From Candidatus Deferrimicrobiaceae bacterium (lineage in GTDB: Bacteria > Desulfobacterota > Deferrimicrobia > Deferrimicrobiales > Deferrimicrobiaceae), in NCBI GenBank assembly GCA_963792415.1, contig CAWBVY010000006.1, positions 544,001 to 608,000 of the forward strand: DNA of 64,000 nt. The letters run 5' to 3'. The notes beneath the pieces were generated by a model that was not told where the DNA came from, made no database searches, and saw nothing but the letters and a program-made list of their open reading frames with translations. A program made the position numbers and the translations under genes. How positions within the stretch are numbered: the stretch's first letter is position 1; every line of letters starts with the position of its first letter. Below, in pieces: positions 50,152 through 60,219 of the stretch.

Positions 50152-52350
50152 TCAGAAGTACGCCCGCATCCTCGTGGAGAAGATCTTATCGTCCGATTCC
50201 CCGGTCCTGGACTCATCCTTTACGACCTGGTACGACATGTCGAGAGAGATCCGGTTGGTGACGTTCCATCGCAAACTGGGGCGGATGGTCTGGACCTTCG
50301 CGTTGTCCCTCGTCGACAGGTCCTGATTGAAGGCGAAGTTGAACAGGAGGGCCCCGGACGGAAAGGGGGACCAGTTGAGGGAGTAATTTTGCGTGTTTTC
50401 AATAATGCCTGGTCGTTCGATCCGGCTGAAGGCGGCGAGCAGGTAAAGAGTGTCGAAGGGCCTGTAGGAGATGCTGGCGTCCCCCCTCCGGTCCACGATG
50501 GCCTCGTCCGGCCTTTCCCCGCCGGACCGGTCCGTCCACGTTCCGTTGAAGTTCAGCGTCACGGTCAGGGTCCGGTTCGGCACGAAAGAGGCGCCGAAAA
50601 GCAGGTTCTCGATCTCCTGCCTTTCGCCCGTGTCCGATTTCTCCCTGGTGACCCCCCCGTTGAGGAAAACATCGATACCCTTGTAGAGTTGGGCCGAGTT
50701 CTGCAATATCAGGGTATACACGTCCCGCAACTCCTCGACCAGTTGCTCGTTCCGCCCGCTGAACAGGAGGACGTGGCGCAACGTCTTCAGCGGTACGGCC
50801 TGCAATGAGGCGGTGTAGGCATAAGCGGACTCTTTCAGGCCATCAACCGTACGGTTATCCTCCCTCGTGACCCTCCCGTTGGCGGAAAATATCCTGGAAA
50901 AGACGTGCGAGGCCGAAAGGCCGTTGATCATGCTGCTCTGCGTACGGGACGGAGGGCTCACATTCACGGTGTTGTAAGAGAAATCGTAGTAAAGGGAGGG
51001 GCGGTCCAGCAGCCTCGTCCGGAAATCGACGGACCCGGTCTGCGTGGTCCGGGTGATTTCCCCCTTCACCTCGTCCGCGGGCCTGGTAAGGAAAGCCTGG
51101 ATCTCCGTCACGAAGATCTCCGGAAATTCCGACGCTCCTGGCACGATGGCCGTGAGCGGCCGGGTCACCACCTTGATGTATCGCGACGTCACGTTCGGGA
51201 GGCGGATCTCGAAACGGTTCTGGAAAGGGCCGAACGGGGCAGTGGCAACGGCCGTCACCAGGTTCCAGACCTTGTTGTCCGGGCTGGTGTAAACCACCCA
51301 GGAAAAGGCGTTTGCGATTTCCGGAAGGAGTTCCCTGTCGACCCAGACGTAGAGGGTGGTCATCTCCTGCGGGATCAGAAAATCGAGCCCCATGTTCCTC
51401 GGCCGGGTGTCTCCGCCCAGCGGGGGGAGCCCCAGGTTCAGGCCGGCGCTTGCGGCCAGGTTTCCGTCGATCAGGGCGGGGTTCGGATCAAGTTCTCCGT
51501 CTGCCGGGCTGTCGTCCAGGGCGGAGAGCCCGGAAAGGGGAATCAGCGGAAAACTCACCTCGCCCCCACCGCTGGTGATGACTTCCGTCTCCGAGCGGGT
51601 CGCCTCGTAGTTTGCGGACAGGGTGGTCCGCCCCTGGAAAAAGGAACCCGAATATCTCGCCCGTCCGTTGTGAGTCCGATTTTTCAGCTCGAGGTCGTCG
51701 ATCCTGTTCACCTCGTCCCTGTAGGAAGGCTGATACCGGAGGTCCAACCCCTTGTAGGCATAATGTACTGCCAATATCGCCTGTTCCGTGCTGGTGTCCT
51801 GATGGACCCGCTCCTTGTCGAACGTGTCGGATTTTTCCAGCCGCAGGTTCCAGTCGGGAAACCCTTCCGGCAACCATCCCAGGACCGCGTATTGCCGCTC
51901 GTTCACATCCGTGGTGGAAGGAGCGCCGGAGCTCTTCAGCTCGTTCTCCCTTCTGCTGTACCCCACCCCCGCCTTGTAGAGGGGGGTTGTCAGCCTCAGG
52001 TCGAAGGAGGGCTGGATAATGGTGTTTGTCGACGTGGTTTGCACGCCGCCCGAATCCGAATCCGTCATCAGTTTCTCGAAGACGCCGCCGGCGATCAGGT
52101 TTAGGTTGGGATAGAACGATTTGTTCAATCCAAGACGGTACTGCTGGAAGAAACCGCTCGTTTGGGTGTTCGTCTCCGCCCCGGAGATGTCCTTGGTTTT
52201 TACGTCGCTACTGGCGTAACCGATATCCAGCAGCCCTGTCAGGCTGTCGGCGGAGGCCACTTCCGTCGTGAACGGGACGGGGCTGAATCCCGCGATCAGG
52301 AAGAAAGCCAGGAGCCGGAAACGGAAGGCTCTCTTCGCCTTGATTTTCAA
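50152..52350 (-). CDS. Large outer-membrane beta-barrel protein (OscE-like)
   Basis: Signal peptide; alternating amphipathic strands; C-terminal Phe (RMRAYF); central soluble insertion (W.VYTSPDN..W...RYIKVV). Confidence 0.78.
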   Translation of the reverse strand: MKIKAKRAFRFRLLAFFLIAGFSPVPFTTEVASADSLTGLLDIGYASSDVKTKDISGAETNTQTSGFFQQYRLGLNKSFYPNLNLIAGGVFEKLMTDSDSGGVQTTSTNTIIQPSFDLRLTTPLYKAGVGYSRRENELKSSGAPSTTDVNERQYAVLGWLPEGFPDWNLRLEKSDTFDKERVHQDTSTEQAILAVHYAYKGLDLRYQPSYRDEVNRIDDLELKNRTHNGRARYSGSFFQGRTTLSANYEATRSETEVITSGGGEVSFPLIPLSGLSALDDSPADGELDPNPALIDGNLAASAGLNLGLPPLGGDTRPRNMGLDFLIPQEMTTLYVWVDRELLPEIANAFSWVVYTSPDNKVWNLVTAVATAPFGPFQNRFEIRLPNVTSRYIKVVTRPLTAIVPGASEFPEIFVTEIQAFLTRPADEVKGEITRTTQTGSVDFRTRLLDRPSLYYDFSYNTVNVSPPSRTQSSMINGLSASHVFSRIFSANGRVTREDNRTVDGLKESAYAYTASLQAVPLKTLRHVLLFSGRNEQLVEELRDVYTLILQNSAQLYKGIDVFLNGGVTREKSDTGERQEIENLLFGASFVPNRTLTVTLNFNGTWTDRSGGERPDEAIVDRRGDASISYRPFDTLYLLAAFSRIERPGIIENTQNYSLNWSPFPSGALLFNFAFNQDLSTRDNAKVQTIRPSLRWNVTNRISLDMSYQVVKDESRTGESDDKIFSTRMRAYF

Positions 52351-52357
52351 CGGATTA

Positions 52358-53752
52358 TTACCTTTCCCCCATCACGGCCACCCAACAGGCTCCTTCCCCG
52401 ACGTCGATCAAGGGAGCCATCTTCCTGCTGACGAGGCCGAGGACCGCCACCGCCTTCCTTTCCGGGAGGACCAAGTAGAGGCTGTTTTCATCCCCGTCGA
52501 TCGTCATGTGGGATGTTCCTCCCCCGGCCGGAATGGAGTCCACGGGGAAAAGGGAAAATGGGTCGAGGATCTCCAGGGCGTCCGGCTTCCTGCCGACATA
52601 CAGGAGGTCGGTCCGCTCGTCCACCTTGACCGCGGTCATCCCGGCCCCGACAAAGACCCGCTTCACGGAAAGCGAGGACGGATCGATGACGGTCATGTAG
52701 GGGGACTGTTCATGGATCACGTAAAGCCGGTCCCCCTTCCGGTTGAACTGCCCCCTCAGGGGTCCCGGCAAGGTCGTGATGGTCGCCGCGAGGGACCGGG
52801 AGACGACGTCGATCACGGAGATCGTGTTGGAGAGGGTGTTGAAAACGTACGCCCGTTTCCCGTCGCGGCCCATCAGAACCGAGTTCGGGCCTTTCCCCAC
52901 CGGGATCCGGTTCCTTTCGATCAGGGAGGCGGTGTCGACGACGCTCACCGAGTCCGAACCGGAGTTGGCGGTGAGAAGGATCGAGCCATCCCCGGAAAGC
53001 GCCGGCTCCTGCGGATGGTCGCCGGTCTGGAGTCGTAAACGGTTTACGACGTCCCACGCTTCCGTATCCACCACTTCGATGGTGTCGTCCCCCGCGAGAG
53101 TCACATAAGCCCTCCGCGACCGTTGGTTCAGTGCGATCCCGCTGGGCCCCCTCCCTGTGGCGATCACCCCGACGACCTGCCCCTCCTTTTTATCGAAGAC
53201 CGTGACGTTGTTGGATCCGGAATTGGCCGCGTACCCTAAGAGGCCTACGGGGGGCCGGTCGGGGACGAAGATGGAAAAGGCGGGGGAAAAACGGTACCGG
53301 TCCCCGGCCGATTTTCTGTAGTCGAGACCCAGTGAGAGAAGGAGCGCCTTTCTCCTGGCGACCTGGAAGGGAAAGCCGATCGTTACGGGCTCTTCCGGGA
53401 CCAGGAGGGCGGCTGTACCCTCCTCCCCTTTGAGAGAAGCGTTCTTAATCTTGAACGAAAGCCCGGTGTACCTCCCGGGGGGCAAATTGCCCGATGCGAG
53501 GAACCGCTGTCTTTGGAGTTTCCCCCCTCGCATCTCCGCCAGGTACAGGGTGAGTGGGTAGGAGCCCCCCCCCTCCTTCACCGCCGAGATCCCCTCCAGG
53601 GTGAAGGCCAGAGGCTCCGCCTCCTGCGGCAGGGGGCGGAGGTAAACGAGCAACTCCCCTTCCTCTTCCAGAGCCGGTTTCACCAGGACGGATTTCGCCT
53701 GGCAACCGGAGAATATCGCCAACGTGAGAATGGCAATGCAGAGACGCTTCAA
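52358..53752 (-). CDS. YVTN/YncE beta-propeller lipoprotein (OscD-like)
   Basis: Lipobox FSGC; YAANSGSNNVTV, ANSGSDSVSVVD, SNTISVID repeats; start could be 53791. Confidence 0.85.
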   Translation of the reverse strand: MKRLCIAILTLAIFSGCQAKSVLVKPALEEEGELLVYLRPLPQEAEPLAFTLEGISAVKEGGGSYPLTLYLAEMRGGKLQRQRFLASGNLPPGRYTGLSFKIKNASLKGEEGTAALLVPEEPVTIGFPFQVARRKALLLSLGLDYRKSAGDRYRFSPAFSIFVPDRPPVGLLGYAANSGSNNVTVFDKKEGQVVGVIATGRGPSGIALNQRSRRAYVTLAGDDTIEVVDTEAWDVVNRLRLQTGDHPQEPALSGDGSILLTANSGSDSVSVVDTASLIERNRIPVGKGPNSVLMGRDGKRAYVFNTLSNTISVIDVVSRSLAATITTLPGPLRGQFNRKGDRLYVIHEQSPYMTVIDPSSLSVKRVFVGAGMTAVKVDERTDLLYVGRKPDALEILDPFSLFPVDSIPAGGGTSHMTIDGDENSLYLVLPERKAVAVLGLVSRKMAPLIDVGEGACWVAVMGER

Positions 53753-53865
53753 GAGGCCCCTTCCCTTCTCCTGTCCCCGGCGGAAATCCACGAAAGGACA
53801 GATCCATTGCCATGGCGTTGCGACCTATGCACTTCTATCAGAACTTCGTCCGAGGCTCAACAATG

Positions 53866-53947: not shown

Positions 53948-55204
53948 TCAGTCTTTCGCGTGGCACTTGTTGCAGAGGGACCGCTGGTACGAGCCGTAGT
54001 GCATCGTCGTGTCGTTGTACGCCTTCGTCGTCTCCGCCACCGTGCGGCCCTGGGCGTACTTCGCCGACGCCGCTATCGTAGATGGGGAGTCCGTCCCGGG
54101 CCACACGCCGTCGACGGCGATGAATTCATTCCCGGTGGCGTTCCACCGCGCCATGTAGTCCCATCCGGTGGCGTGCGCCCGGTGGCACGACAGGCACATC
54201 ACCCTGTCGCTGGTCGCCGGGCCGGTGGTTACCGTGGTCGGATTCGCGAGGGTTTTGAGAGTTGTATAATTGCTGGTGTTGTTCGACTGGAAGGGAACGA
54301 TCGAATCGTAGGATGTCGCTACGGTTCCCGTCATGTCGCCGCTGCCTTTATACGCGTTGTAGTTGGCCACTACAGCGGCACTCAGCCCCTGGTTGACGGG
54401 GTGCGTCATTTTGGAAGAGGTCCCGCTGTGCATATCGGGATGGCAGGCCGCGCACCAGTCGGAAGTTCCAGCGCCATACGCAACACGGGTGGCCGAGACC
54501 GCCTCGGTACGATTGTACGTGGACGGCGAGGAGGCGTTGAAAACGGCGGAAAAAGTCTTGCCGCCCGGACCGGCCGTGGAACCGTCCCCGCGCAGGATCC
54601 GGTACGCGCCGACTGCCTGGCCGGCCGCGGGTTCCACGCTGTTCCAGTAGGAGCCGGAGGCGATGATGGGGCCGCCGGTCACGCCGAACGTGGGAGCGGC
54701 ATCGGTCCCCGTTCTCCGCAGCTTGCCGTGCTGGTCGTGGCAGCTGGTGCAGCTGAACAAGGTCGAATCCATGTCCCCGCCCGGAGCGGTCGTGTTCTGG
54801 ACGTCCGCAATATAACCGAAATCGGCCGCGATGATGTTGTGTCCCTTCTTTTCGGCGAAACTGGTCTCGGTGGTTCCAGAGCGCGGAGACCAGGTGTACC
54901 CTTTCTTCAGCCACCCGAAATCACCGCCCGGGGTCCGGTTTCCCGGAGGGGTCCCGACGGGCATGTCCGCATCGGGGGTCGCGATGTGGTAGCTGGAGGC
55001 ACCGGACGCTCCGTGGCAGCTGAGGCAGGTGGAGCTGGCGTCTGTATTCGCCAGGAGAGACGATGTCGATTTCGCATCGTGGATGTTGTGGCACCCCATG
55101 CACTCGGCGACGCCGCCCGAATGGAAGGCGAGCGCCATCCCGCTGAGCCCCACGGTGATCAGGGCCGCGGCAAAGACGATAAAACCGATTCGTAAGCCTT
55201 TCAT
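53948..55204 (-). CDS. omcS: OmcS-family hexaheme nanowire cytochrome
   Basis: Signal peptide then FHSGGVAECMGCHNIH, TPGGDFGW.KK, GHNI, SGSY, TRVAYG, CLSCHRAHA, YQRSLCNKCHAKD; 6 CxxCH. Confidence 0.92.
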   Translation of the reverse strand: MKGLRIGFIVFAAALITVGLSGMALAFHSGGVAECMGCHNIHDAKSTSSLLANTDASSTCLSCHGASGASSYHIATPDADMPVGTPPGNRTPGGDFGWLKKGYTWSPRSGTTETSFAEKKGHNIIAADFGYIADVQNTTAPGGDMDSTLFSCTSCHDQHGKLRRTGTDAAPTFGVTGGPIIASGSYWNSVEPAAGQAVGAYRILRGDGSTAGPGGKTFSAVFNASSPSTYNRTEAVSATRVAYGAGTSDWCAACHPDMHSGTSSKMTHPVNQGLSAAVVANYNAYKGSGDMTGTVATSYDSIVPFQSNNTSNYTTLKTLANPTTVTTGPATSDRVMCLSCHRAHATGWDYMARWNATGNEFIAVDGVWPGTDSPSTIAASAKYAQGRTVAETTKAYNDTTMHYGSYQRSLCNKCHAKD

Positions 55205-55219
55205 CAGATCCCCCTTTTT

Positions 55220-55306
55220 CCTCTCCGGCAGCCCGGCCATCCGTTGCACATGGATCCGTCGGCTTTGTGTCCCCGCCTTTCGGTCGGGTTTACCCTTTTC
55301 GGAGGA
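55220..55306 (-). ncRNA. GEMM-I (cyclic-di-GMP-I class) riboswitch upstream of omcS
   Basis: CUCCGAAAAGGGUAAACCCGACC-GAAA-GGCGGGGACACAAAGCC...GGCCGGGCUGCCGGAG follows the GEMM-I consensus (GYAAAC, GNRA loop, GACRCAAAGC, P1 closure). Confidence 0.9.
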
Positions 55307-55438
55307 TCGGTTTGTTGGTTGGTTCCCTGAAGCCCCTCGAAGAATTACTCTCCGGATTCCACTTCGCACTTTCTATCGCTTCTTCTCCCCACCCCCTTTC
55401 GGATAATTTCGCGCCCCGGCCTTCCCCCGCTTTGCGGA

Positions 55439-56389
55439 TCATTCGTAGGAGACCCGGAAGACGCTGATCCCTCTTTTCCTTGCCTGGCTGACGAACACGC
55501 GGCCGGCTTTATCGACCACCAATTCATTCGGGGCGATCAGGTCGCCCGGCCCGGTACCCCGTTGGCCGAACTGCGCCTGGAACTTGAACTCCTTGTCGAA
55601 AACCGACACCGCGGAGCGCAGGGTGTCAGTCACGTAGATATCCCCCCTGCCGTCGACCGCGATCCCCGACACGATGTTGAACCTCCCGGGGAGGTTGCCG
55701 GAGGTCCCGAACGAGGAGAGCCGTCTGTCGGGAGAGAGCTTGAAGACTTTGAACAGCGTGGGCACGGTAAAGAACAGGTTCCCCTCCGGGTCCACGGTGA
55801 TGCCGGCGATGTTGTATTCGGCCCCGGGTTTCTGCTCGAAATCGACAAGGAGGGGGGCGATGTCGAACCCCTCCTGAAAAACACCGCTTGCATCCGTCAC
55901 CACCACCTTCTTCGCGACCAGGTCCGCAAGGTACAGTTTCCCGTTCCCGGAAAGGAGCCTCCCGGGGAAGATCCGGTCGAACTCGCTGGGGAGATTCCGG
56001 ATTTCGATCCCGGCCTGCGGCTCCCCCCGGTAGTCGCACCGCGTCACCCGGAACCGGTCCCCCGCGCGGGAAAGGATGAGGATGTTGCCGTCGCTCTCGA
56101 CGGCAACATCGATGAAACCGCCGATATCCAGGTCATCCCCGAACCGGTACACCTCCATCCCGCTGCTGTTGAAGACCGCCACGGAGTCGCCGGTGACCAC
56201 GTAGATTTCGCCTCTCTCCGGGTCGATGGATTGCTTGACCCAACCATACGGAACGGTTCCTGAAAAATTCGAGAGGCTGTACAGATAGGTTGCTTTTACC
56301 CCTGCAACGGACGAGGAAGGAGCGCATATCAACAGCAGGAGCAGTGCCGCCGCGAGACCTCCGATCGATGAAGAGCGAACCCGTATCAT
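55439..56389 (-). CDS. Secreted NHL-repeat beta-propeller upstream of omcS
   Basis: Signal peptide; GIAVD..G.IYVTD, FG..G.GPG.L..P repeats. Confidence 0.87.
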   Translation of the reverse strand: MIRVRSSSIGGLAAALLLLLICAPSSSVAGVKATYLYSLSNFSGTVPYGWVKQSIDPERGEIYVVTGDSVAVFNSSGMEVYRFGDDLDIGGFIDVAVESDGNILILSRAGDRFRVTRCDYRGEPQAGIEIRNLPSEFDRIFPGRLLSGNGKLYLADLVAKKVVVTDASGVFQEGFDIAPLLVDFEQKPGAEYNIAGITVDPEGNLFFTVPTLFKVFKLSPDRRLSSFGTSGNLPGRFNIVSGIAVDGRGDIYVTDTLRSAVSVFDKEFKFQAQFGQRGTGPGDLIAPNELVVDKAGRVFVSQARKRGISVFRVSYE

Positions 56390-56401
56390 GCCGAAAGGCA
56401 G

Positions 56402-56417
56402 AGCAACAGGCATGCCA
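56402..56417 (-). promoter_or_regulatory. Sigma-54 promoter for the NHL-omcS operon
   Basis: TGGCAT-GCCTG-TTGCT, near-consensus -24/-12. Confidence 0.75.
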
Positions 56418-56685
56418 GACCAATTCCAGGAAAAATGTCTTTAATAACAAAGAGGTATGGATTAAAGCCTTCGATCCTCCCGGTGCAATGGTGGATTCCC
56501 CGGGTTCCTTGTGGGGATATGACCACATCGGGAGCGCGGGTAGGGCGGGGGTTTCCGACGGGAAGCGCCCCATTGCGGGACCCGGCGGGACGGGTTGCCA
56601 TGCAGGCAGGAAATTTCCCTCAATAAAACGAGCCGCATTGCCGATATCTCCCCTTAGCGGATATGTGCCCGAATGGAGAAACATT

Positions 56686-57984
56686 GTGGCGTTAACATCC
56701 TGCCCCAGGGGTAGTTCCCTTGGTTTCTGGATCTTCCTTCTTGCCGCCGCTACGGTGGGAAATCCCGCTTCCGCCTTCCACTCGGGAGGGACCGGTGAAT
56801 GCACCGGGTGCCACGACATGCACCAGGCGCAATCGTCCCCGGAAGGGACGGATAACAATGTCGCGCTGCTGGCAGGGAAGGACCCGGGATCCGTCTGCCT
56901 GGAGTGTCACCAGAGGGCCGGACAGAAGCAGCCCGATTCCCACCTCGTGGCAACCGCAGACCCGGACATGCCCGCCGGAATGCCACCCGTTCAGCTCACA
57001 CCTGCAGGGGATTTCGGCTGGGTAAAGAAAAGTTACCGCTGGGGGACCGGGGGGGGGGAAGACGGAGGGTACAGCCCCGGAGAGCGTCACGGTCACAATA
57101 TCGTCGCGGACGGATACCGGTTCTCCCCCGACGCGGAACGGGTCACGGCTCCTGGAGGGACCTACCCGTCGATCAGCCTTTCCTGCATCAGCTGTCACGA
57201 CCCGCACGGGAAGTACAGGCGGTTTGCCGGCGGTTCCATCGGAACCGTGGGCGCACCGATCCAGGCATCGGGGTCCTACGACTCGAGCCCGGACCCTTCC
57301 GGGGACCGTTCCGTCGGGGTCTACAGGCTCCTCGGGGGGAAAGGGTACAGGACGTCCTTGTATGATGGCGAGCCATTCACCGCCGACCCTCCCTCCGCGG
57401 TATCCCCCGCGACGTACAACCGCAAGGAAGATGCGGGCGACACGCGGGTCGCCTACGGCGCCGGTTTCTCGGAGTGGTGCGCCAACTGCCATCCCCGGTT
57501 CCTGTCCGGCGGAGGCACGGGCGCGAAGAGCCACCCCGCGGGAACCACCGTAAAACTTTCGCGGAACGTAATCGCGAATTACAACTCCTACGTGGCCTCG
57601 GGGAATCTCTCGGGGAGCAGTTCCACGTCGTATACCTCCATGGTTCCGTTCGAGGCCGGTACGTCGGATTACGGGCTATTGAAAAGGATGGCGAAGAGCG
57701 ACGGATCCGCGGCCGCGGGTCCCGGGTCCCAGGCCAACGTGATGTGCCTCTCCTGCCACCGGGCCCACGCCTCCGGGTGGGACCACGGGGGCCGGTGGAA
57801 CCTGAAGTCGGAATTTCTCGTCTACAACGGGCAGTTCCCGGGAATCGACGACGGGACCGTGCCGGCAAGATTCTCCCAAGGGCGCACGGGCGCCGAAACC
57901 CGGAAGGCGTATTACGATCGACCGCCGACCGCCTATGCCACCTACCAGCGTTCGCTCTGCAACAAGTGCCACGCGAAGGATTGA
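56686..57984 (+). CDS. Second OmcS-family hexaheme cytochrome (OmcT/OscC-like paralog), divergently transcribed
   Basis: GGAG RBS and GTG start; FHSGGTGECTGCHDMH...GDFGWVKK...CISCHDPHGKYRRF...YQRSLCNKCHAKD; 6 CxxCH. Confidence 0.9.
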   Translation: MALTSCPRGSSLGFWIFLLAAATVGNPASAFHSGGTGECTGCHDMHQAQSSPEGTDNNVALLAGKDPGSVCLECHQRAGQKQPDSHLVATADPDMPAGMPPVQLTPAGDFGWVKKSYRWGTGGGEDGGYSPGERHGHNIVADGYRFSPDAERVTAPGGTYPSISLSCISCHDPHGKYRRFAGGSIGTVGAPIQASGSYDSSPDPSGDRSVGVYRLLGGKGYRTSLYDGEPFTADPPSAVSPATYNRKEDAGDTRVAYGAGFSEWCANCHPRFLSGGGTGAKSHPAGTTVKLSRNVIANYNSYVASGNLSGSSSTSYTSMVPFEAGTSDYGLLKRMAKSDGSAAAGPGSQANVMCLSCHRAHASGWDHGGRWNLKSEFLVYNGQFPGIDDGTVPARFSQGRTGAETRKAYYDRPPTAYATYQRSLCNKCHAKD

Positions 57985-58830: not shown

Positions 58831-60219
58831 CTACTCCAGCCCGAACTTCTTCACCTGGTACCGCAGGGAGTCGTAGGTAATCCCGAGGAGCTTCGCCGCA
58901 AGCGTCTTGTTTCTCCCCGCTTTCTCGAGCGCCTGGAGGATCAGGGTCCTCTCCACCTCCTCCAGGGAGAGCCCCTTGTCGGGGATCGTCAGCCTCGGGG
59001 CTGCCTTCGTCTCGGCCTCCCCCTTGCAGTGCAGGATCTCCCCGGGAAGGTGTTCCGGCCGGACGATCTCGTCGCTTTCCAGGACGACGATCCGCTCGAC
59101 GACGTTCCGCAGTTCCCGGACATTCCCCGGCCAACGGTAGGCGACCAGCATCTCCTCCGCTTCGGGGGAGATATCCTTCAGCGCCATCTTGTTGTACTTC
59201 TCCGTGTAGCCCCGCAGGAAGTGTCGCGCGAGCAAGGGAATGTCCCCTTTCCTCTCCCGCAGCGGCGGCAGATGCAGTGAAAAAGCGGTGAGCCGGTAGT
59301 AGAGGTCGACGCGGAACTCTCCCGCCGCCACCGCCCCCTCGAGGTCCCGGTTCGTTGTGGCGAACACCGTGGCATCGATCGGAAAATCCTGTCGTCCTCC
59401 GATCCGCCGGAACTTCCGTTCCTCGATCACGCGGAGGAGCTTCGCCTGCAGGTCCAGACGCATCTCCCCGATCTCGTCGAGGAGGATCGAGCCGCCGTCC
59501 GCCTGCGCGAAGATCCCCTTCTTCTCGGTCTTGGCGTCCGTGAACGCCCCCTTCTCGTGTCCGAAAAGCTCGCTTTCGATCAACGGCTCCGGCAGGGCGG
59601 CGCAGTTGATCCCGAGGAACGGGGCGAAGGAGGCGAATTCGGACGGGTGCATCAGGTGGTGGATGTGCCGCGCGAAGACCTCCTTCCCGGTGCCGCTCTC
59701 GCCCGTGATGAGGACCAGTGGAACTCCGGCGTCGGCGAATTTTTTACACTTCTCCTTCAGCTTGTAGACCTTGTTCGTCTTCCCGATGATCTCCTGGTCG
59801 GCCAGGTTTAAACTGACCCTCCGGAGGTATTCGACCTCGAGCTTCAGGTTTCCTTTCTCGATGATCCGCCCGACGACGATCTTCACCTCGTCAAGGTTGA
59901 ACGGCTTCGTCAGGTAGTCGGCGGCGCCGATCTTCATCGCCTTGACAGCCGTTTCCGCCGTGTCGTCCGAAGTCAGCATCACCACCTGGGTGGAAATCCC
60001 CTGCCCGACGATCTCCCCGAGGATGTCGATTCCGTCCCGCCCCGGGAGTTTAATGTCGAGCAGCACGATGTCGGGGGAGAATGCCCGGATCCTGTCGAGG
60101 ACGCCCTCGGGGTCGCTCACCGCGTGGACGTCGTATCCGTCCCCGCGCAGCGCCCGCTCGAGCATGGAGACGATCAGTTCGTCGTCGTCCAGCAGGAAGA
60201 CTTTCCCCTTGGTCTTCAT
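58831..60219 (-). CDS. Sigma-54-dependent response regulator (NtrC family)
   Basis: REC, GESGTGKE, ESELFGHEKGAFTDA, LDEIGE, WPGNVREL, Fis-type HTH. Confidence 0.95.
   Translation of the reverse strand: MKTKGKVFLLDDDELIVSMLERALRGDGYDVHAVSDPEGVLDRIRAFSPDIVLLDIKLPGRDGIDILGEIVGQGISTQVVMLTSDDTAETAVKAMKIGAADYLTKPFNLDEVKIVVGRIIEKGNLKLEVEYLRRVSLNLADQEIIGKTNKVYKLKEKCKKFADAGVPLVLITGESGTGKEVFARHIHHLMHPSEFASFAPFLGINCAALPEPLIESELFGHEKGAFTDAKTEKKGIFAQADGGSILLDEIGEMRLDLQAKLLRVIEERKFRRIGGRQDFPIDATVFATTNRDLEGAVAAGEFRVDLYYRLTAFSLHLPPLRERKGDIPLLARHFLRGYTEKYNKMALKDISPEAEEMLVAYRWPGNVRELRNVVERIVVLESDEIVRPEHLPGEILHCKGEAETKAAPRLTIPDKGLSLEEVERTLILQALEKAGRNKTLAAKLLGITYDSLRYQVKKFGLE

Follow-up and report, generated by a model that had tools for sequence, protein, structure and literature searches.

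A single-copy GEMM-I riboswitch ahead of an OmcS-family cytochrome gene: a probable translational ON switch with c-di-GMP as its likeliest ligand

We analyzed a 64,000-nucleotide (nt) stretch of DNA from a Candidatus Deferrimicrobiaceae bacterium (GenBank assembly GCA_963792415.1, contig CAWBVY010000006.1, positions 544,001 to 608,000), hereafter called the window, and focused on the leader of a gene for an OmcS-family c-type cytochrome. This leader carries the only GEMM-I riboswitch of the genome, which on balance probably functions as a translational ON switch with cyclic di-GMP (c-di-GMP) as its likeliest ligand. In the proposed mechanism, an anti-Shine-Dalgarno (anti-SD) strand, GAUCCUCC (55308-55301), would pair with GGGGGAUC (55214-55207) in the absence of ligand and mask the Shine-Dalgarno (SD) sequence; since four of the five 5'-strand bases of the aptamer helix P1 would sit in this helix, P1 could not form without ligand. 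Ligand binding would hold P1 (CUCCG/CGGAG) together, lock the anti-SD strand away and leave the SD free for the 30S subunit, and the bases at 55308-55305 may offer a toehold from which the SD could invade a newly transcribed P1 that has no ligand bound. Since the pocket bases point to c-di-GMP as the likeliest ligand, high c-di-GMP would raise the synthesis of an extracellular cytochrome. The features on which this argument draws are as follows.

53948..55204, minus strand: gene for an OmcS-family hexaheme c-type cytochrome of 418 amino acids (phmmer, Pfam and translation)
55202..55204, minus strand: ATG start codon of the cytochrome gene (translation; the N-terminus aligns with relatives)
55207..55215, minus strand: ribosome-binding site AGGGGGAUC, 2 to 10 nt before the ATG (sequence)
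55223..55304, minus strand: GEMM-I aptamer with P1, P2 bearing a GAAA tetraloop, and P3 (full-length RF01051 match; RNAalifold)
55304-55300 with 55227-55223, minus strand: P1, CUCCG paired with CGGAG (cmscan alignment)
55294, minus strand: G at the position of Vc2 G20 (model position 11, the unpaired G before the G21-C46 equivalent, the first P2 pair)
55266, minus strand: A at the position of A47, the base after the P2 closing pair (RF01051 and RF03167 consensus lines)
55228, minus strand: C at the position of C92, immediately 5' of the P1 3' strand (alignment)
55301..55308, minus strand: anti-SD strand GAUCCUCC (sequence, minimum free energy fold and conservation in relatives)

In a cmscan search of the window, RF01051 (c-di-GMP-I) matched the minus strand at 55304-55224 over model positions 1-87 of 87, with 56.1 bits against a gathering cut-off of 35 bits and an E-value of 2.7e-08, which is decisive for the aptamer assignment. 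This was the only riboswitch in the whole 64 kb at gathering thresholds and the only GEMM-I element in the 2.84-Mb genome (11 contigs), where its E-value is 2.8e-10, and no c-di-GMP-II riboswitch (RF01786) was found in the genome at E<=0.01. The match ends 19 nt before the ATG of the cytochrome gene, with 18 nt between the end of P1 and the ATG; this part of the window reads ...CCGAUCCUCCGAAAAGGGUAAACCC...GCUGCCGGAGAGGAAAAAGGGGGAUCUGAUGAAAGGC on the minus strand. An RNAalifold consensus of 18 leaders recovered P1, P2 and P3, with two-sided compensatory changes in 12 of 24 pairs.

The bases that contact the ligand in the Vc2 aptamer of Vibrio cholerae have their equivalents here in G20, A47 and C92. 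The roles of these three pocket bases are described in part of PMC6140456, according to which G20 contacts the Hoogsteen edge of one ligand guanine. The ligand would lie in the three-helix junction, with G20 contacting one guanine, C92 forming a Watson-Crick pair with the other, and A47 stacked between them. Among 86 related leaders, A occupies the A47 position in 83 (the other three gave no regex match) and C the C92 position in 85. By every sequence feature examined, namely the score, P1 to P3 and the three contact bases, the element is a member of GEMM-I; it is not GEMM-Ib, which has adenine at position 20 where 55294 is G, nor the GGC variant. The latter model, c-di-GMP-I-GGC (RF03167), scored 56.5 bits, below its cut-off of 59, and 55266 is A where its consensus has G. 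A tandem riboswitch was likewise rejected, as only one match is present, and so was antisense or upstream-gene control, since the aptamer lies on the same strand as the cytochrome gene, 19 nt from its ATG. A sequence-only reading of the window had placed a GEMM-I aptamer directly 5' of the omcS ribosome-binding site, with G and C at the equivalents of Vc2 positions 20 and 92, and had proposed that 55308-55301 pairs either in P1 or with 55214-55207; the Rfam model bears out the aptamer, and all of these coordinates and bases proved correct.

The regulated gene encodes a 418-amino-acid protein whose translation has a signal peptide, a conserved N-terminal FHSGGVAEC..CH..H sequence and six CXXCH motifs, and which matches Pfam Paired_CXXCH_1. 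A conserved histidine follows the first CXXCH by three residues (CMGCHNIH, as in CEGCHTMH), and we take this residue to ligate the heme of a neighboring subunit. The sole phmmer match in the PDB was OmcS of Geobacter sulfurreducens (6ef8/6nef; E 3.4e-98), with residues 27-418 aligned to residues 1-407 of the mature protein, an alignment that takes in the N-terminal FHSGGVAEC.GCH..H. Together with the six CXXCH motifs and the histidine, this full-length homology marks the protein as an OmcS-family, nanowire-type homolog, for which filament formation is predicted from homology. Its closest homologs (68-75% identity) come from metagenome-assembled genome (MAG) records titled Thermodesulfovibrionia, Nitrospiraceae, Nitrospirae or Nitrospirota, and part of a deep-mine study reports OmcS genes in Thermodesulfovibrionia MAGs (PMC8478452). 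The Geobacter setting that the sequence-only reading implied does not hold, given where these homologs lie and a genome with one GEMM-I element instead of about 17.

The aptamer and the cytochrome gene are linked well beyond this genome. Seven of the 28 genomes of the genus carry a GEMM-I element, one each, and four of these seven loci precede an OmcS homolog (tblastn identities of 51% at L007, 48% at L004, 37% at L006 and 27.5% at L008), with two at contig ends. An OmcS homolog (E<=1e-20) was found in only 4 of the 28 genomes, and in all four an aptamer stands before one copy. A protein-based search of species-representative genomes gave 17 loci, of which 11 have the aptamer directly upstream; at one (L030) it stands before the preceding paralog instead, and none was found at L029, L034 and L042 or at two weak partial matches (L043 and L044). 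We also sampled metagenomes with a pattern that fixes positions 1-6 of the anti-SD:SD pairing and part of the aptamer, which gave at least 120 stretches; 80 loci were listed, and 68 of these were usable (10 were left out as truncated or without a recognizable 3' strand of P1, and 2 as without a start). An OmcS-type N-terminus with FHxGG follows 58 of the 68 usable leaders, and the distance from aptamer end to start codon in relatives is always 13-45 nt.

Several of these loci depart from the common arrangement. The OmcS homolog at L029 (L029:1440-1505, plus strand) is 74% identical to that of the window and lacks the aptamer; what remains is a GCCGGC-CUU-GCCGGC hairpin and, after it, an identical GGAGGAUU SD, as though the aptamer module were missing between them. 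A GCCGG-N4-CCGGC hairpin is conserved ~8-30 nt upstream of the anti-SD strand in L028, L031, L033, L038, L039 and L040, while the window and its genus lack this GC hairpin and share a CA-rich stretch instead (CAACCNAAC). Two other families of secreted proteins have the aptamer and anti-SD leader as well (L092, L097, L107, L119, L143, L148 and L150; L117 and L161; also L010), with G.(S)PH[ND]F in seven N-termini and a DCYDCHTMH heme motif in two. The same leader design occurs at L039 and L040, whose MAG records bear the titles 'uncultured Actinomycetes' and 'uncultured Syntrophales', which suggests that either the leader-gene module has spread horizontally or the binning is in error.

The sequence between the aptamer and the start codon suggests how ligand binding would be read out. 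The anti-SD strand GAUCCUCC can form eight pairs, one of them G-U, with GGGGGAUC; its four 3' bases (55304-55301) belong to the P1 5' strand as well, and its four 5' bases (55308-55305) lie outside P1. In the RNAfold minimum free energy (MFE) structure of 55312-55190 (-37.6 kcal/mol), the GAUCCUCC:GGGGGAUC helix forms around an intact P2 and P3, and P1 is absent. The duplex formed in the window has an energy of -13.6 kcal/mol compared with a mean of -9.2 for shuffled 10-mers (standard deviation 2.1), and it is the best among 206 natural 10-mers of the leader; 176 of 5000 shuffles were as good, so that the window alone gives modest support for the anti-SD pairing. No terminator-like site was found in 55100-55500.

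Related leaders share this arrangement. GGAGGAxx occupies the equivalent site in them, the spacer being 4-7 nt long, and the xxUCCUCC equivalent of the anti-SD strand is conserved in 17 of the 18, while the P2 tetraloop varies (GUAA, GCAA, GCGA and GUGA). An equivalent helix of 6-10 pairs, with P1 absent, is present in the MFE structure of 17 of the 18 leaders, and enforcing P1 in these 17 costs 0.5-10.9 kcal/mol (5.7 for the window); the exception, L041, already has P1 in its MFE structure, at an enforcement cost of 0.0. Ligands bound with nanomolar to picomolar affinity can pay such costs. With P1 enforced, the SD was more exposed in 14 of the 18 leaders.

We counted anti-SD:SD pairs by an ungapped register search, taking the register with the longest run in each leader, because a MAFFT alignment of the 18 leaders had set the SD out of register. 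In 17 non-redundant leaders, position 6 is U-A in 16; position 7 is A-U in 10, C-G in three, G-U in one, U-G in one and mismatched in two; and position 8 is A-U in four, G-U in four, G-C in one (the window) and mismatched in eight. The metagenomic leaders supplied 49 distinct anti-SD/SD combinations, for which pairing was compared with 20000 shuffles. Position 7 pairs in 37 of the 49, with all six standard pairs present (A-U, C-G, G-C, G-U, U-A and U-G), against a shuffle mean of 24.4 and with none of the 20000 shuffles reaching 37, and position 8 pairs in 29, against a mean of 20.6 and with 17 of 20000 reaching 29; because the sequences are related, these shuffle figures overstate independence and are not to be read as probabilities. 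Positions 9 and 10, which serve as an internal negative control, pair in 12 and 10 of the 49, at or below their shuffle means of 14.2 and 11.3. Cognate anti-SD/SD duplexes were also more stable than non-cognate ones (-11.25 versus -10.41 kcal/mol), a difference reached in 159 of 20000 permutations, or in 297 of 20000 when the test was made on the nine distinct anti-SD types. Taken together, the MFE structure, its counterparts in 17 of 18 relatives, covariation outside P1 and the lack of a terminator support a competition between P1 and the anti-SD helix. An SD-masking helix that excludes P1 and is conserved with covariation, and the lack of a terminator before the start codon, are features expected of the translational ON class.

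A number of observations weigh against this reading of the leader, some bearing on the switch itself and others on its ligand. Thermodynamic modelling of the window alone was unstable to the choice of transcript ends, the probability of the masking helix being 0.20, 0.78 or 0.04 for three choices, and was excluded from the main evidence; in the window a competing pairing with CGGAUCC of P3 can mask the SD as well, and enforcing P1 raised the mean unpaired probability of the SD from 0.17-0.49 to only 0.43-0.60. No sigma-70-like promoter was found in 55100-55500, nor was a promoter of any type identified for the leader. CGGAG, the 3' strand of P1, itself resembles an SD and so imposes part of the pairing in the CCUCC/GGAGG core, which is why the covariation test rests on the bases 5' of P1; there the real signal is limited to two columns, positions 7 and 8, in a set of related sequences selected by a pattern that itself fixes positions 1-6. 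These points favor an account in which the aptamer is real and the SD complementarity is not a ligand switch, the leader acting through mRNA stability or Rho-dependent termination, adopting a constitutive fold, or having an untranscribed 5' flank. We consider this account quite unlikely, because pairs covary at positions 7 and 8 outside P1 and not at positions 9 and 10, because UCCUCC 5' of P1 is conserved though absent from the Rfam consensus, and because the aptamer always ends so near the start codon. A 191-nt contig from an RNA library, with three differences, spans 55103-55293 and thus reaches the aptamer from within the coding region, which argues weakly for transcription, DNA carry-over being possible; among public runs (Logan contigs), which cannot show transcript start, strand or level, none contained half of the sampled words. 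An OFF switch, in which ligand would promote SD masking, is highly improbable. GAUC at 55308-55305 could pair with GAUC at 55210-55207 while P1 is formed, extending P1 and closing a 12-nt bulge, but such a 4-bp helix across a 12-nt asymmetric loop is absent from the P1-enforced folds, which instead expose more of the SD in most leaders, and the full 7-8-bp helix seen in relatives needs the P1 bases. The translational ON logic, which the sequence-only reading had also proposed and whose in vivo direction we infer from these folds, is the best reading of the models.

The second group of observations concerns the ligand. An alternative with the same architecture and ON logic would have an RNA that binds 3',3'-cyclic GMP-AMP (cGAMP), or both dinucleotides, placing the cytochrome under a Hypr GGDEF pathway, as is partly the case for OmcS/OmcT in Geobacter. 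Of 11 GGDEF-domain matches in the genome, seven keep both the motif and the canonical Asp, and the cell therefore certainly produces c-di-GMP. Outside the window, it also encodes a 469-amino-acid GGDEF protein (G000:C1:86295-87701, minus strand) with Ser at the 348 position, GGDEF where GGEEF might stand, and Gly in place of the conserved cross-dimer Arg, which agrees with the Hypr signatures given in part of PMC6456294 (Ser or Thr at position 348 combined with GGDE[F/Y], and a cross-dimer residue other than Arg). In the PDB it is closest to 6d9m, the Hypr domain of GacA, at 177 bits compared with at most 105 for canonical cyclases (a 72-bit lead), and its N-terminal ~300 amino acids have no Pfam match at E<=0.01; it is a GacA-like Hypr GGDEF protein and a candidate cGAMP synthase. 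Orthologs with 81-91% identity and the same three residues throughout are present in 25 of the 28 genus genomes and in 19 of 19 of high quality. When the phylum was sampled with 121 genomes, Ser/Thr together with GGDE[F/Y] was present in 23 of the best 30 loci and Gly at the 348 position in four, three gave no regex match, and none of the 27 matched loci has Arg at the cross-dimer position. Position 20 itself varies between leaders: it is G in 61 and A in 25 (~29%) of the 86 related leaders, and G in 39 and A in 19 of the OmcS-type metagenomic leaders among the matches listed. The nearest A20/G20 leader pairs are identical at up to 76 of 80 positions (95%), a safer statement than the 16 G20/A20 changes (21-24 in five shuffles) on a quick tree of the 86 aptamers with position 20 masked, since that tree has ~85 columns and is poorly resolved, making the figure unreliable. 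Moreover, the Geobacter omcST riboswitch is described, in the part of PMC6456294 that cites Kellenberger 2015, as sensitive to both ligands.

Despite this, we judge the cGAMP-pathway alternative unlikely. Position 20 is G in the window, and A47 and C92 are canonical; in the portions of the two papers concerned, wild-type Vc2 (G20) discriminates against cGAMP while its G20A variant binds both ligands (PMC6140456), and A20G turns the Gmet_0970 aptamer from cGAMP to c-di-GMP (PMC6456294). In addition, the Hypr-like gene is near-universal in the genus and the riboswitch is present in a quarter of its genomes (25 of 28 versus 7 of 28), so the main targets of the enzyme must lie elsewhere. From its pocket bases, the aptamer is quite likely to be selective for c-di-GMP, and rather unlikely to be bispecific or a cGAMP aptamer. 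The sequence-only reading's preference for c-di-GMP over cGAMP is thus upheld by G20, A47 and C92 and qualified by the Hypr GGDEF gene and by G20/A20 switching in orthologous leaders; the genome search for a Hypr-type GGDEF, which it had named as a check, was positive. More broadly, we put forward only tentatively that a single conserved leader gates the translation of OmcS-type cytochromes across Thermodesulfovibrionia and related uncultured anaerobes, that repeated G20/A20 flips may retune it between c-di-GMP and cGAMP control in a phylum rich in GacA-like Hypr GGDEF enzymes, and that the window would represent the c-di-GMP state of a natural two-ligand toggle.

Two further variants of the aptamer were seen among relatives. 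The OmcS leader at L036:1403-1481 (plus strand; 45.2 bits) has A at position 20, U in place of C92 (CUGUCGGAG) and AAG following position 47. In two MAGs, a second GEMM-I aptamer (L041:158-235 and L036:161-238, plus strand; RF03167, 68-71 bits) lies ~1.2 kb upstream of the OmcS leader and is followed by a terminator-like hairpin and U-run, so that both types of read-out occur in one neighborhood.

The window also contains a second OmcS paralog at 56686-57984 (plus strand), which has 432 amino acids, six CXXCH motifs and a GTG start and is 51% identical to the regulated copy. It is oriented divergently, with an NHL-repeat gene (55439-56413, minus strand) between the two copies, and it has no riboswitch, as 55000-57000 contains no riboswitch match at E<=1 besides the aptamer described above; a divergent OmcS pair is also found in two other genomes (G007 and G022). 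A sigma-54-dependent response regulator with Rec, AAA+ and HTH_8 domains (NtrC/AtoC-like) is encoded at 58831-60219 (minus strand), 3.5 kb upstream of the leader. The cytochrome gene is followed on its own strand by genes for a YncE-like beta-propeller protein of 477 amino acids (52358-53791, minus strand) and a 732-amino-acid open reading frame without a Pfam or NCBIfam match (50152-52350, minus strand).

Compared with known systems, the element resembles Vc2 in its Rfam family, three-helix junction, G20/A47/C92 contacts and GNRA tetraloop on P2, but the CUAAG...UAUG stretch in the consensus of the model finds no counterpart in its P3. Its platform, an anti-SD strand overlapping the P1 5' strand, predicts an ON switch, and its regulated gene encodes a cytochrome, whereas Vc2 reportedly represses translation. 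The overall sequence is very close to RF03167, and five leaders of the same genus exceed the 59-bit cut-off of that model; its consensus has G at the A47 position (GCGAA versus GCAAA), whereas the window and all listed relatives have A. We take the 'GGC' in the name of that model to encode positions 20, 47 and 92. In the add adenine riboswitch of Vibrio vulnificus, a ligand-stabilized P1 likewise competes with an SD-masking helix. Aptamer class and ligand differ there, and since the masking strand of the present leader comprises the P1 5' strand and four upstream bases, the OFF helix would enclose the whole aptamer, unlike in add.

The closest functional parallels are the Geobacter GEMM-Ib elements (pgcA/GSU1761 and the omcST leader), in which a GEMM-I fold likewise precedes extracellular multiheme cytochromes, including OmcS/OmcT, and which are described in part of PMC6456294 as ON switches tied to metal respiration. 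According to the same source, they have A20, prefer cGAMP and in the case of pgcA act via a terminator, while the present leader has G20 and no terminator, with control apparently at translation. G. sulfurreducens has 17 GEMM-I copies, compared with one in the present genome. The kind of switch, P1 versus anti-SD in a translational ON arrangement, is already known; what is new is the lineage, a translational platform conserved in front of OmcS genes, the occurrence of one leader in G20 and A20 forms, and the Hypr-like GGDEF in the phylum. Among the papers searched, none combines riboswitch, OmcS and Nitrospir*, and a single review mentions Hypr GGDEF together with Nitrospir*.

Among microbial 'nanowires', OmcS filaments are understood best, and nearly all work on how they are regulated comes from Geobacter. 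The Geobacter cGAMP riboswitches act by transcription termination, whereas the locus described here joins the same fold and kind of gene to a predicted translational read-out and a pocket that predicts c-di-GMP. The leader is short (~105 nt), modular and found naturally in G20 and A20 versions, making it a test bed for how one base sets second-messenger specificity, and the same leaders bear on whether c-di-GMP or cGAMP governs mineral respiration in uncultured bacteria of the subsurface. The presence of a GacA-like GGDEF in all high-quality genomes of the genus suggests that cGAMP signaling may reach far beyond Deltaproteobacteria and, if the two-ligand toggle is true, riboswitch control of extracellular electron transfer by cGAMP would not be confined to Geobacter.

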